From a virus (lineage: Duplodnaviria; Heunggongvirae; Uroviricota; Caudoviricetes): 64,000 nucleotides of DNA. The stretch spans positions 19,119-83,118 of the IMG/VR virus record IMGVR_UViG_2506381019_000003; one strand, given 5' to 3'. The translations under genes and the position numbers were made by a program. This document shows, in pieces, positions 6,837 through 21,272 of the stretch (positions within the stretch are counted from its first letter, which is position 1; the number at the start of each line of letters is the position of its first letter). The notes beneath the pieces were generated by a model that was not told the origin of the DNA, made no database searches, and saw only the letters and a list, made by a program, of their open reading frames with translations.

Positions 6837-9800
6837 TCAGCTGCGCGCGTCGGCGATGAGCCGGCCGATCAGATCCGCCTTCGACATGGCCGACCATGCG
6901 GGGACACCGCGGCGCATTCCGACCGCCCGAACCTGCGCGGTGGACATGCCGTTGAGGGTGCGACGGGCCTTCGCCCCGCCCTGGGCGAGTTCCCGGGTGG
7001 CGGAGATGACGGCCGGGGATGCGGCCTCCTGGTAGGCGGCCGACTCGGCCTTGCCGGACCAGCGGGCGCCCTGCTGCCTGCTGGCCATCTCTGCGACCAG
7101 CTCGCCGTGCCGCATCGTGTCCCAGCCGGTGATCCGCGGGTTCTCCATCCGGCCGGCGGCCACCCGAAGCCGGGCCGGGTCGCTGTCCGCAAGGGCGATG
7201 ACAGTGCTGTCCCGCCTGCCCTCGGCCGGCGTAGCCAGCATGCTGGTGATCCGGTCGACGTCCGCCCGCGCGTTGGGCCCGAACGCCGCGTAACGGCGGT
7301 CCGCGTCCTCACGTGACCCGGGTACCGCGGGCATCACATGCAAGTCTGGATGGTCTGCGGGCAGGGTGTCGCGGGTGATCGTGTCGACGATCTGCCTGCG
7401 GGTCGGGTTCTTCTCCGGGAGACCGTCACGGCCAGGAACCCGGATATTCTTGCGCCACACGAAATCCTTGAGTTCCCACTCGCTCAGTTCCCCGAGGGCT
7501 TTTTCGATGCCGGCACGGTCCGTCGCCGCGTCGATCCCGGCTTTCACCCGGGCCTGAGCCCGCATCTGCGCCTCATGGCGGACCATGCCCTCCCGGTGGG
7601 AGATCAGCGCGGCGGCGAGGTCCTCCCGAGGGCCCACGCGGAGCATCTTCGCCTTGGCAAGCTCCCGAAGATCCGCGTCGGAGACCCCTCGTAGAGCTTC
7701 CCGCATCTCGGGTGCGGTGCGGGCCCCGTCCAGCCGGGCACCGGCGTCCTTCGCGCGTGCGGCGCGTTTCTCGGCCGCCGCCGCTTCCTGCGCGGCCTTC
7801 TCCTTGCGCTTGGCTGCGAGTGGCCCGCCGTCGAAGCGGGTGTTCGACCCAGTGTCGATCTTGTACTTCTTCGCGACGATCTCGTGTGCCCGCTGGTTGA
7901 TGTAGGCGTCCCGCCCGCCGGCCGCGTCGATCGTCGCGGACTGCTCGGGAGTGAGGTCTTCCGCGTTGGCTATCTCCCGGGCGAGGCGGGCCCGGTTCTC
8001 CCGGTACTCCCTCTTTGCCGCGTCGGAGGGTTCCTTCGCCTTCTTCTGCCTGGCAAGGATCGGAAGGTTCGCGGCGATCGCACGGTCCTGCGCCCGCTGC
8101 CGGCTACCCGCGGTCTTCTCGTTCACGGCCAGGTCGGCGAACATGTCGGCCTGGCCGTCGATGTGATCGGAGGCCTCCCACAGGTCGCTGAGCTTGTACT
8201 GCTCGACAAGGAAGTCACGGGTGTTGCCGCCACGCTGGTAGATCCCGACGGTGACCCATCCGGCGTCCGGCGTCCCGAAGACTCGTCCGGGCCCGTCGGG
8301 GGTTTCGACCATGCCGGCACGGTCACTGATGCGCCGCAGGTCGGCGGCGGTCAATGTCGGTGTGCCGGATGGTCGGGTCTGCGGCTGCCGGGCCGGTAGC
8401 GCACCGGTCGGCGTGTCACCTGCTGGCGGGGCCGGGTCGACACGGACAGGCTTCTGCGGAGTGGGCCGGGTGACCTGGTTTCCGCCCGAGGTCTGGCGGC
8501 CGTCACGGCGGGTCGCGGACGGCGCGGCGTTCCGCGTCGGGGTCTTGCGTGGCGTCTCAGCGGCGAACGCCCGCCCGCGGGGGGTGAGCTGTCCCGCATC
8601 GTCGATCAGTCCGAGCTCACGCGCGCGGGTGAGCGTCGCCGGGCGTGCGGACACGGCCGGGTTCGCGCTCTTGCGCTTCAGGTACCCGGCGACGGTCTTT
8701 TCTGCCTGCCGGAACGCCCGAATCTCGTCCGCTGTCGGAGCCGGGGTGTCGGCATGGTTGTCCGTACCCGGGCCGACGACTGGGGTGGGGCGGGGCGGGG
8801 TCGGGTCGGAGACGTCCCGCTCGTGCCGGGTCGGCTTCGGCTCAGGCGTGGCGGTGCCGCGGCCGGCGAGCCTGGCGCGCTGCTTCCGCTCGGCATCCCG
8901 GTCGAATCCCAGATCGCCGTCGCCGACCTCGTGCATTGCGTCGCGGCGGAACCTCGGGCCCAGGGTGACGTTGACGAGCCCCTCGACCATCCGGGCCTTG
9001 TTGCCGGCGGGCAGCGAGATGTTGTGTTCCTTCGCGAACGCCCGCAGGTCTGCGACCTTGACGTCGCCGAGCATCTCCTCCGCAGCCTGCCGGTTGGAGG
9101 CTGCGTGCAGCTCGTCCATGGTCGGCATCGGCCGGGTACCCCGCGCGGTGCGGGCACGGGCGGGCTTGGGCGGGGTGGGCGGTTCGGGGCGGGCCGGGCC
9201 GGCACCGAGCTCCGTACCCTGGCGCAACGCCCGTTCCCGCTGTGCGCGGGCATGGTCGGCGTTGTACCCGAGATCGCCGTCGCCAGCTTCGGTCATCGCC
9301 CTGGTCCGAATCTGGGCGGCGAGTGCCTGACGGGCCAGACTCCCGGCCATCTCCGCCTTGGTGCCCCGGCCCGCGGTCAGTCCGTTGGCCTTCGCCCACT
9401 CGCGGAGCTCGCCGGCCTTCATGGTGGCGAGCAGCGCCGCGGCGGCGTCCGGGTCACCGGTCGCCTTCACCGCGTCGAGCGTCAGCGCCCCACCCGGCGC
9501 CGGCGTGGGCGTAGGGGTGGACTTTTCGGCGCCGGCGCGGGCGGCGGCACGCTTCGCCTGAGACCGCTCGTACGCGGCCCGGGTGTGCCGGCCACCGAGG
9601 TTTGTATCCGCGGTGATGTTGTTCTCGGCCGCGTAGTCGCCCGTGCGGATCTGCGCGGCGAGCTCGTCCCATGCCGCCCGGTCGTCCGGGTGCGCGTTGC
9701 TCTCGGCAATCGACGCTTCCATGCGGTCACGGGACGCGTGGTGATCCGCGGCGTTGGCGCGGGCGTTCGCCAGCTCGTGGGGGTCGGCGTCGGGCTGACG

Positions 9801-19473: not shown

Positions 19474-21272
19474 AGGCGGAGAATGAACACGGCCAGGTCC
19501 GGATCGTTTCGGATCACGGAATGGTCGGATTCGAATGACTCGCTACCCATGGACGCGACTTCCCAGTGGAGGGCGTCAGGTCCTTCGCTGTAGACCTTGC
19601 CCGTGTAGGGGTTGACGAACGAGTCCCTGCGGGTGATTTCATCGTTGCGGTATGCGGAGTCTGGGGCCGCATCGGCGAGACGCATTTTTTGCCCCGCAGG
19701 GCTCCAGGTCCTCTTGCCGTCGACCTCTTCGCTCGTGTTGCGATACGCATGGTAGGCCCACTGTGCGGCGGCGAGGCCAGGAACTCTCTCTTCCATCATG
19801 TGGGTGAGTTCGTGTGTGGCGATCCGGGTATCTCCGTCACGGACCACGATCCGGTTCCCCTTGCCGGAGTAGTAGGCCCGGCCGGTCACGGGTAGGTTGC
19901 GGCCGGCGAGTTCGTCGAAGGTGACGACATCGGCCTGGCGACCTCGGGCCCGGTCAACCCACTCGGCGGGGAAGTTCCGTAGCGCGGCGTCGACGGTTCT
20001 TTTGCCGGCCGGTGAGACGCTGTCCGCGTAGTCGAGGGCACCCCCGAACGGCCGGAGGCGGGAGAGGATATCCCGCTGCGCTTCCGGGCGCTGGGCCACC
20101 ATGCGGATGCGGATCCTCATGTAGTCGGTGTACGCCTTTGACGCGGCGGCTGCAGCCTGGTCGGCCTCCTCGAAGCCGTCAGGGTCGAGGTTGGCATCGA
20201 TGGCGTCACGACGTTCGAACGCAGCACGGCGGGCTGCGGTGAGGATGCGGAAGCCGTCGGGATCGTGGTCGGGGTCACCGACAAGTTCAGCCGTGCGGCG
20301 TTCGACCAAGTCCATGACTAGCTCGCCAGCGCGCCGGATGGCGTCGACCTTCGCCAGTGTGTCATCACCGGGAATCTGCTCGTCGTGGTCGGAGACGTCC
20401 GGGACCCGCCGAGTCGACATCAGCCGGATCGCTTCCTGATGCTCCGCCGCGTCCTTTCGAGCCTGCTCCATTGAGTTTCGTAGGCTCGCTAGGGCGTATT
20501 CGCGAGATGCCGGGCTTTCCCGCATGTCACGGATGCGAGAAAGGGCCTGGAACAGGTTTATGTATTCATCGCTGGAATCGTCACGCCGCGCAAGCTTGTT
20601 CCAATGGCCGCGTTCTATAAGGTCGATGACCTCTCGATGTTCGGCCATTTTTCGTTCCAGTTCGGCGTGGTCCCGTTCCAGGCGGATCCGGAAAACGTTG
20701 GGGCCGTCGATGAGCTCGTTCCGCCAGCCGATATCTGCCGGGTTTCCGATCTGCGCGCGGAGTTCCGCGATACGGCGCCGCGCGTCGTCGATGTTCAGCT
20801 TTGCGGGATTCGCGCCCGGTGACGGTCGGACGGTCGGGTCGCCGGGGCTGGCCCCGCTGTCGCCGCCGCGGACAATGTCGACGGGCTGGTCTGCCCGGCC
20901 GATCATGCGGACGCCGTTGCCGACGTGGACCCGGACCGTCCCCTTCGTGCTGCCCAGTTCGACTTTTTCCACCCGGTAGCCGGCGAGCACATCACCCTGG
21001 CGGATGTCGCCGGCGAAGACGGTGAGTTTCCGCCCGGACGGGGTTGCCACCTCGACGCCGCGGTTCTTGGTCTGCTTGCCGCGTTCGTCGTACCAGCGGA
21101 CCCGCGGGCCGCCGGACGGCTTCGGGGTGGGCTTCGCGCCGCCGTTCTTGTGCCGCCAGCAGCGGGACTGGCCGGGCTTGAGGTTGTTCTTACACCGGCC
21201 GCCGGTGGTGGTGGCCGCGCCGCACTTCTTACCGTCCGAGAGGCGGGTCAGGGCGGACGCGCGGGCGGCCAT
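19458..21272 (-). CDS. 604-aa protein. N-terminal zinc-ribbon 'RASALTRLSDGKKCG...RC.NN...RCWRH' is paralogous to the giant protein's N-terminus. Central coiled coil. C-terminal HExxH zincin-like domain ('IATHELTHMMEER').
   Basis: The motifs are read directly from the translation. Confidence 0.55.
   Translation of the reverse strand: MAARASALTRLSDGKKCGAATTTGGRCKNNLKPGQSRCWRHKNGGAKPTPKPSGGPRVRWYDERGKQTKNRGVEVATPSGRKLTVFAGDIRQGDVLAGYRVEKVELGSTKGTVRVHVGNGVRMIGRADQPVDIVRGGDSGASPGDPTVRPSPGANPAKLNIDDARRRIAELRAQIGNPADIGWRNELIDGPNVFRIRLERDHAELERKMAEHREVIDLIERGHWNKLARRDDSSDEYINLFQALSRIRDMRESPASREYALASLRNSMEQARKDAAEHQEAIRLMSTRRVPDVSDHDEQIPGDDTLAKVDAIRRAGELVMDLVERRTAELVGDPDHDPDGFRILTAARRAAFERRDAIDANLDPDGFEEADQAAAAASKAYTDYMRIRIRMVAQRPEAQRDILSRLRPFGGALDYADSVSPAGKRTVDAALRNFPAEWVDRARGRQADVVTFDELAGRNLPVTGRAYYSGKGNRIVVRDGDTRIATHELTHMMEERVPGLAAAQWAYHAYRNTSEEVDGKRTWSPAGQKMRLADAAPDSAYRNDEITRRDSFVNPYTGKVYSEGPDALHWEVASMGSESFESDHSVIRNDPDLAVFILRLWATL

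Follow-up and report, generated by a model that had tools for sequence, protein, structure and literature searches.

The 64,000-nucleotide stretch of DNA analyzed here (the window; positions 19,119 to 83,118 of IMG/VR virus record IMGVR_UViG_2506381019_000003) is a seemingly complete Parafrankia sp. EUN1f prophage whose packaging and head module encodes three proteins, designated P1, P2 and P3, that are otherwise unrelated but begin with a common short motif, RGRASAL. This tag is N-terminal in each protein and is under selection at the protein level. We propose, tentatively, that it may be a docking peptide that puts the three accessory proteins into the procapsid as internal, probably ejected proteins.

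An N-terminal motif shared by three packaging and head-module proteins

The original prediction, made from the sequence without database searches, had listed four late-operon proteins as sharing the motif. All four open reading frames are present on the minus strand, and the proposal stands for P1 (1176 residues; 6837..10367), P2 (273 residues; 11743..12564) and P3 (604 residues; 19458..21272) but not for the fourth protein (15919..16575). P1 bears RGRASALTRM at residues 3–12 (10332..10361) behind a V-S- start, P2 bears RGRASALRVF at residues 4–13 (12526..12555) behind V-P-P-, and P3 bears RASALTRL at residues 4–11 (21240..21263) behind M-A-A-. A GGAG-type ribosome-binding site lies 6–9 nt before each of the three start codons. 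The consensus, [S/A]-R-[G/A]-R-A-S-x-L-[T/R]-x-[L/M/F], begins 3–4 residues past the initiator Met. The fourth protein carries RRGASLAEL at residues 20–28, behind a different conserved N-terminus (VHGSGxFG), and the loose pattern needed to admit it, R[AG][AS][AS]L, occurs eight times in six frames and is therefore at chance level.

The six-frame translation of the 64 kb contains the strict core RASAL four times, namely at the N-termini of P1, P2 and P3 and once (37473–37487) outside any called gene. In a proteome of ~15,100 residues, in which R (10%), A (14%) and L (8%) are the commonest residues, RASAL is expected ~0.12 times, versus the three copies observed. In simulations matched to the composition of the proteome, a 5-mer common to three of the 53 N-termini arose in 0.07% of trials using random internal segments and in 0.02% using shuffled N-termini. 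The similarity thus exceeds chance (simulated P 2e-4 to 7e-4), which had been put forward as a ground for discarding the original prediction. Neither the scaffold, the capsid nor any other protein of the window contains an internal copy of the motif, and neither the motif nor the zinc ribbon that follows it in P1 and P3 is annotated in Pfam, PHROGs or NCBIfam. The sequence behind the motif has no hydrophobic core, which rules out Tat, Sec and type VII secretion system signals.

A sister phage, represented by two contigs of one sequencing run (L011 and L018, overlapping by 27 nt; Logan SRR20363690), encodes orthologs of all three carriers, which begin MAARASTLTKL, VSSRGRASVLRQF and VARGRASTLTRL. 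Their motifs read RGRASTLTRL in the P1 ortholog (P0058), RGRASVLRQF in the P2 ortholog (L011) and RASTLTKL in the P3 ortholog, with no further in-frame occurrence in the sister phage, and in the six genes of the two phages the motif keeps its place with respect to the start codon. Identity between the window and the sister phage amounts to 95% for the major capsid protein, 92% for terL, 87% for the portal and 84% for MuF2, versus 57% for P3, 55% for P1 and 50% for P2, which are the fast-evolving part of the head module. Over their first 25 residues, the two versions of P2 share 84% identity and those of P3 80%; for P1 the figure is 52%, and it drops to 28% in the next three blocks of the protein. 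Of the five R-G-R-A-S codons, four show a synonymous difference between the two P2 genes, and such differences recur within the motif among paralogs and orthologs (GCA/GCG, GCG/GCC, CTC/CTG, CGG/CGT, GGT/GGC and TCC/TCT). What selection maintains is therefore the peptide, as opposed to a DNA or RNA element.

A possible docking peptide for capsid cargo

The window has a G+C content of ~70%, nearly every gene from 88 to ~60,400 lies on its minus strand, and Parafrankia sp. EUN1f proteins are 100% identical to P2 and P3. A tyrosine integrase and a helix-turn-helix (HTH) repressor-like gene at its right end identify a temperate phage. Profile searches recognized the major head protein (4223–5056), a small minor-head protein (6477–6821), terL (17264–18595) and a terS-like HTH protein (18543–19070), along with a head–tail connector protein and tail-fiber-like proteins. 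The minus strand also encodes three candidate docking partners: an acidic SPP1-type portal protein (12585..14300; isoelectric point (pI) 4.9), a MuF2-type minor capsid protein devoid of a toxin extension (10391..11560; PF06152, E 8.4e-47) and a scaffold-like acidic protein (5097..6044; pI 4.5) whose gene just precedes that of the major head protein. The portal, MuF-type and terS-like genes lie where the original prediction had put them. PF06152 corresponds to the MuF2 family of Jamet et al. 2017 (PMC5576092). Since no prohead protease family was matched in the head module (Pfam, PHROGs), the module resembles that of SPP1, with portal, MuF, scaffold and capsid. P2 is encoded directly after the portal gene, between it and the MuF2 gene, P1 directly after the MuF2 gene, and P3 upstream of the terS-like gene.

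P3 is organized as the tag, a zinc ribbon, a YDERGK motif, a small β domain, a long helical region and a C-terminal HExxH domain. Its C-terminal ~200 residues match unannotated PHROGs and one ‘minor head protein’ PHROG and, in tblastn searches, C-terminal portions of proteins from Streptococcus pyogenes prophages, of Bacillus phage vB_BboS-125 gp68 and of a Planktothrix phage protein. The vB_BboS-125 gp68 gene follows the portal gene, and the protein has a Phage_Mu_F domain at residues 182–293 and the P3-type domain at its end. SpyM3_1120 of Streptococcus phage 315.3, a post-portal protein behind an SPP1-like portal, carries the P3-type domain at its C-terminus, and a 1522-residue protein adjoining the portal gene of an IMG/VR contig (L016) has Phage_Mu_F at residues 267–372 and the P3-type domain at its C-terminus. 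By a Rosetta-stone argument, the fusion of this domain to MuF in three unrelated phages suggests that the domain and MuF act together inside the head. In a Frankia sp. AgB32 prophage (L013; NZ_JALKFX010000237.1), the gene between the P3 homolog and the terS-like gene (10873–11616) encodes a 247-residue protein with an N-terminal ribbon followed by an ADPrib_exo_Tox domain (PF03496, 7.6e-12).

Our proposal is that the motif, a short basic stretch in which small and hydrophobic side chains recur at every third position (A6, L9, L/M/F12), would dock on a single acidic partner, the same for all three proteins, as the procapsid assembles; this could be the portal, MuF2 or the scaffold. P1, P2 and P3 would then be built into the head ahead of DNA packaging and would exit the capsid along with the DNA at the next infection. 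In function, this would match MuF-toxin fusions, though non-covalently, and the T4 capsid-targeting sequence, though with no proteolytic removal. This docking reading draws on the strict N-terminal position of the motif and its conservation at the protein level against a rapidly diverging background, on the fact that every carrier is encoded within the packaging and head module, and on the MuF fusions that the P3 domain forms in other phages together with the ADP-ribosyltransferase payload of a relative. It further draws on the basic character of the carriers (pI 8.9–10.6) versus the acidic portal and scaffold-like proteins, and on the SPP1 precedent of portal-mediated targeting, in which gp7 is targeted to the procapsid via portal binding (Stiege et al. 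2003, as cited in PMC5576092).

The capsid-targeting role suggested in the original prediction therefore holds up in part: the genome context fits capsid-internal carriers, but the analogy with T4 is incomplete because the searches turned up no prohead protease and the motif is followed by no cleavage consensus of the L/I-x-E type in P1, P2 or P3. A more specific version of the docking reading, which we hold with greater reserve, is that RGRASAL could be a portable, uncleaved packaging tag of an SPP1/MuF2-type capsid, by which cargo effectors would be loaded non-covalently onto the portal–MuF complex. It is with similar caution that we suggest that these cargo effectors might be zincin-like, ADP-ribosyltransferase and DNA-binding proteins that are not fused to MuF.

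The zinc ribbon and a nucleic-acid-binding alternative

Directly after the motif, P1 and P3 continue into a CCCH zinc ribbon of identical spacing (C-x9-C-x10-C-x2-H), at residues 20–44 of P1 (10236..10310, minus strand) and 17–41 of P3 (21150..21224, minus strand). The pattern occurs exactly twice in six frames, which bears out the matching ribbons of the original prediction, and the two N-termini share 44% identity (BLASTP E 7e-9, composition-adjusted). A profile built from the first 50 residues of P1 and P3 and searched against 1.84 billion representatives retrieved 95 of them at E ≤ 1e-3, many with 2–9 tandem copies. Only the P1 ortholog matched the full-length profile, besides P1 and P3 themselves, whereas 92 proteins matched the ribbon part only (profile positions about 18–47), and some matches have a GIY-YIG- or T5orf172-like region, as judged by eye.

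The spacing of the ribbon and its R-C-x2-H-K/R ending we take to be those of the plant ET repeat (EFFECTOR OF TRANSCRIPTION). The P1 and P3 ribbons conform to an ET-repeat-like pattern, C-x8/9-C-x9/10-(R)C-x2-H-(K/R), and recovered repeat arrays; unlike ET repeats, they are single copies at the extreme N-terminus of phage proteins, where zinc and DNA binding are predicted. ET repeats bind zinc and DNA (PMC6585611), which is known only for the plant repeats. The CCCH ribbon is a separate, widespread mini-domain, probably for nucleic-acid binding. It is not part of the tag, because P2 carries the motif and has no ribbon.

P1 adds several SAP/Rho_N-like helix–extended–helix repeats (Rho_N and Fan1_SAP matches below threshold) and is strongly basic (pI 10.1, net charge +40). 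These sequence features suggest a DNA-associated internal protein. P1 contains no HExxH.

The main rival explanation, which we consider unlikely, is that the motif, the ribbon and the RDxxGRF element make up a nucleic-acid-binding arm, whose carriers would act on phage DNA or RNA in end protection, condensation or as packaging or ejection accessories. Such an arm would account for the adjacency of the motif and the CCCH mini-domain in P1 and P3, for the repeats and high positive charge of P1 and for the RGR core of P1 and P2, which recalls AT-hooks. It also agrees with the retrieval of ET-repeat-like arrays and of GIY-YIG/T5orf172-associated proteins by the ribbon profile, ET repeats being DNA-binding (PMC6585611). 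However, P2 has the motif and no ribbon, and among the other 93 profile matches the motif is found only in the P1 ortholog, so that it is not intrinsic to the ribbon. The invariant core R-A-S-x-L has hydrophobic positions and no basic run, P3 lacks RGR, and a DNA-binding arm would need no strict placement 3–4 residues from the N-terminus.

The HExxH domains and a protease-site alternative

The two HExxH motifs of the original prediction were both recovered. P2 matches phrog_4415 ‘peptidase’ over nearly its full length (E 1.1e-70) and contains HEFGH at residues 167–171 (12052..12066, minus strand), followed 48 residues on by ETFAE (11896–11910), which provides a candidate third zinc ligand. Both are kept in the orthologs and in gp2, a ‘peptidase’ of Mycobacterium phage Bactobuster (Pukovnikvirus), with which P2 shares the layout HExGHAxD ... 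ELFAE. Bactobuster gp2 in turn has a sub-threshold match (E 0.056) to ATLF, the anthrax lethal factor family. In P3, HELTH (residues 487–491; nt 19800–19814) lies in the C-terminal zincin-like domain (about residues 397–604; 19461..20084, minus strand). An alignment of six members of this family shows that H-E-x-x-H, D-x-F-x-x-P-Y-x-G-K-x-Y and E-x-x-x-M-G are kept and that Glu residues downstream of HELTH are invariant. At the sequence level, P2 and P3 therefore both present HExxH and a candidate downstream Glu ligand, as expected of zincins.

Neither HExxH region matched Pfam M78/ImmA at E ≤ 10, no curated toxin family matched these domains, and sequence and profile searches of the PDB gave no match. 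Homology between the two domains was rejected: hhalign aligned the HExxH helix alone (probability 6.7%), and we therefore treat the domains as unrelated. AlphaFold2 (AF2) models reached a predicted local distance difference test (pLDDT) score of 45 for P2 and 60 for P3, low values that reflect the two or three homologs available. The P3 model has strands at 447–451, 467–469 and 474–477 and helices at 482–496 and 500–511 (pLDDT about 60–84). With these models, Foldseek retrieved only coiled coils from the PDB and, from BFVD, one unnamed match as well as matches to the small β domain of P3. The part of the P3 model around HELTH would fit the description of a zincin core in PMC5512222.

The original prediction had regarded the HExxH domains as candidate injected effectors or anti-defense proteases. 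According to Iyer et al. 2017 (PMC5512222), zincin-like domains of virion proteins can serve encapsidation or self-processing: N4 vRNAP is not encapsidated unless the region with such a domain is present, and self-processing is suggested for DdrB of phage P1. The zincin-like domains of P2 and P3 need not be injected proteases.

A small conserved protein encoded at 21297–21542 (minus strand), which has no family match, reads MRPPGFL..EI.HWLG...AATR.LL.RRGI.PAAQ...LLWRW.DL. Its counterparts (L011 240–461, L012 4811–5014 and L013 7959–8228) always lie directly upstream of the P3 homolog. Possible roles are the regulation of late genes and a part in packaging recognition.

We regard as improbable, and as less likely than a nucleic-acid-binding N-terminus, that the motif is a protease recognition or cleavage site, used by the P2 zincin as a maturation enzyme, by a host protease or as an N-degron, through which the carriers would be jointly processed or turned over. 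P2, with its ‘peptidase’ match, is encoded between the portal and MuF2 genes and itself bears the motif, and T4 targeting sequences are cut off by the prohead protease. Processing of virion polyproteins by zincin-like domains is also proposed by Iyer et al. (PMC5512222). On the other hand, Pfam and PHROGs searches found no classical prohead protease, the protease activity of P2 is a prediction and its fold model is unusable, the scaffold, the capsid and other proteins contain no internal copy of the motif, and the mycobacteriophage relative of P2 has no motif.

Shuffled N-terminal elements

P2 carries a second motif, RDRRGRF, at residues 20–26 (12487..12507, minus strand), which is common to the P3 family and has its counterpart in YDERGKQ at residues 61–67 of P3 (21072..21092, minus strand). 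Several packaging-module proteins of two relatives (L012, assembly GCA_043110245.1, and L013, Frankia sp. AgB32) bear the ribbon at residues 6–8 and, behind it, a KKL[GA][DE]L stretch, to which the P3 homologs add PTLAALRFRDERGRL. In L012, three packaging-module proteins have the N-terminal ribbon, one of them together with a SAP domain. The PTLAALRFRDERGRL element aligns with ASALRVFRESQVRRDRRGRF of P2 and YDERGK of P3. In the distant P3 homologs P0005 and L013, the zinc ribbon comes first and is followed by KKLGEL and TLAALRFRDERGRL; this permuted form is found in two Frankia-type prophages. As judged from these sequences, the N-terminal region is a small set of shuffled elements.

In the terL–portal interval of L012, two genes (10747–11676 and 11734–12921) encode proteins with the ribbon at residues 7–8. 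One of these has a SAP domain, like a miniature P1.

Module shuffling could also have left the shared N-terminus behind as a mere relic, a 5′ segment duplicated among neighboring genes and devoid of any common present-day function. The clear homology of the P1 and P3 N-termini and the permuted element order in P0005 and L013, where the pieces move around, are in keeping with this idea. Nevertheless, the N-terminal block is far better kept than the rest of the proteins, synonymous changes have accumulated in the motif, and its position relative to the start codon is maintained in six genes of two phages. We therefore hold a relic to be improbable too, and again less likely than a nucleic-acid-binding arm. 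An artifact, whether chance in an Ala/Arg-rich genome whose high-GC codon bias makes coding DNA look alike or a conserved nucleotide-level element such as a translation-initiation signal or an operator, is essentially excluded by the excess of RASAL over expectation, always at N-termini, and by synonymous differences showing that the peptide and not the nucleotides is kept. An RNA element at the gene starts was likewise ruled out by this synonymous variation and by the lack of an Rfam match.

Distribution of the motif and points that weigh against docking

The docking reading faces several difficulties, the first of which is the narrow distribution of the motif. It is limited to the window, to one sister phage and, in degenerate form (KPKLATL), to a single metagenome contig (L001), whose more distant P2 ortholog reads KPKLATLARR in the corresponding stretch. 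Among 50,697 isolated phage genomes we found nothing comparable, and the N-terminal 72 residues of P3 returned noise only; in the same set, megablast of the region gave no match and tblastn of P2 gave none at 1e-5. As single queries against viral contigs, P2 and P3 retrieved no relative, two metagenome scans for relatives were also empty, and a genome scan yielded one locus. All nine IMG/VR portal relatives lack both P2 and the motif. A degenerate DNA pattern for RGRASAL gave at least 120 matches in viral contigs, of which those listed were random or out-of-frame, with none at a credible N-terminus. Among the matches listed in a literature search, no paper dealt specifically with a Frankia phage.

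Second, the distant P3 homologs P0005 and L013 start with the zinc ribbon and have no motif at the N-terminus, and the tag is therefore not essential for the family. Third, the ribbon, probably DNA-binding, is paired with the motif in two of the three carriers, which would fit a nucleic-acid role as well. Fourth, the N-termini of P2 and P3 have AF2 pLDDT values below 45, which do not establish whether the motif is helical. Finally, the key step of the model, packaging into the head, rests on inference, as do ejection, the choice of binding partner and any proteolytic role, and the host is hard to manipulate.

Comparison with known protein-loading systems

The T4 capsid-targeting sequence directs internal proteins into the prohead, from which they are ejected with the DNA. 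Like this sequence, which is borne by IPI–III, the RGRASAL motif is a short N-terminal peptide on unrelated head-module proteins, found within residues 3–13 of three proteins and of their three orthologs. It has no sequence similarity to the T4 element, however, and is accompanied by neither a gp21-type protease nor an L/I-x-E site, in the setting of an SPP1-like head with MuF2. Packaging is established for T4, whereas the motif described here is known from sequence alone. Encapsulin cargo-loading peptides, short terminal stretches of the type small-small-Leu-basic (e.g. GSLRR) that are usually C-terminal, dock unrelated cargo inside an HK97-fold shell. Their pattern is loosely like that of the window motif, and we claim no homology.

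MuF polymorphic toxins offer a second comparison. They too belong to temperate phages. Their genes lie by the portal, which in the window holds for P2, with P1 behind MuF2 and P3 ahead of the terS-like gene. Metallopeptidase-like and ADP-ribosyltransferase domains are among their commonest payloads (Jamet et al., PMC5576092), to which the HExxH domains of the window and the ADPrib_exo_Tox domain of the Frankia relative may correspond, and the domain of P3 is fused outright to MuF in other phages. In the window, by contrast, MuF2 is short and the payloads are encoded by separate genes with the RGRASAL motif, the ribbon or both. P1, P2 and P3 have no MuF match in Pfam or PHROGs, so that they could associate with MuF only non-covalently. 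SPP1 gp7 is similar in its head-module architecture (portal, MuF, scaffold, no protease) and as a DNA-binding minor protein recruited by protein–protein contact and not by proteolysis-coupled assembly; it differs in that gp7 is the MuF protein itself, for which no short portable tag is defined. If the tag reading is true, the distinction between cargo and specialized effectors in type VI secretion would be a parallel to that between non-covalent loading and MuF fusion.

Polyvalent proteins, whose virion zincin-like metallopeptidase domains are described by Iyer et al. (PMC5512222), resemble P1, P2 and P3 in the occurrence of HExxH in multidomain virion proteins alongside Rho-N/SAP and ADP-ribosyltransferase domains, whereas P1, P2 and P3 are separate, smaller proteins. 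A search of this paper and of Jamet et al. 2017 by domain terms, which did not extend to the motif string, turned up no mention of a zinc ribbon or of any similar element at the N-terminus. The P1–P3 system, as we read it, works like the T4 capsid-targeting sequence and the MuF toxins yet belongs to neither.

Delivery of proteins along with phage DNA is known, and their entry into the capsid is understood in a few cases, namely the T4 sequence, MuF fusion and SPP1 gp7. If the docking reading is true, a defined, very short and uncleaved N-terminal tag would be a third, modular route into SPP1-like heads, which would explain how effector-type domains are swapped while MuF is left untouched. It would also supply a handle of roughly 12 residues for loading arbitrary foreign proteins into such capsids. 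The finding also places the widespread, unannotated CCCH mini-domain in a functional context for the first time.

Other features of the window

The fourth protein is a real gene product encoded after terL that lacks the tag. Its frame has the highest third-codon-position G+C (GC3, 0.85), and an ortholog follows terL in the Frankia sp. AgB32 prophage (L013 14801–15487). The family, for which we found no match, is conserved and extremely basic (pI 11.8 for the window protein) and is marked by VHGSGxFG, GAS[LI]A[EQ]L, ADPLRAK and NPEGFL. In the surrounding interval between terL and the portal gene (14394–16600, minus strand), the coding frame switches three times, and the GC3 profile indicates three consecutive genes: that of the fourth protein, one at about 15368–15913 and one from 14598 to about 15370, the last with a sub-threshold WDGH domain match. 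The longest-open-reading-frame coordinates within this interval overlap, and gene lengths are probably overstated. At this position the sister phage has a Lipase_3 gene on the opposite strand.

Several genes outside the head module deserve mention. At 42712–44999 (minus strand), a T4-type RNA ligase 1 (PF09511, 1.8e-17) adjoins a polynucleotide kinase/phosphatase (HAD_PNKP 2e-48 and AAA_33), forming an RNA (tRNA) repair pair of the type used by phages against anticodon nucleases. A TROVE (Ro60-like) domain protein is encoded at 25903–27495 (minus strand; PF05731, 2.5e-12), and the window contains no Y-RNA or other Rfam family at gathering thresholds. The early or accessory region includes an SPFH/Band 7 domain protein at 37646–38962 (minus strand; PF01145, 1.7e-17). 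After a tail-fiber-like gene, a 768-residue protein (88–2394, minus strand) matches DMFA2_C, the C-terminal domain of N,N-dimethylformamidase β-subunit-like proteins, at 1e-59, which is unusual in a phage tail region.

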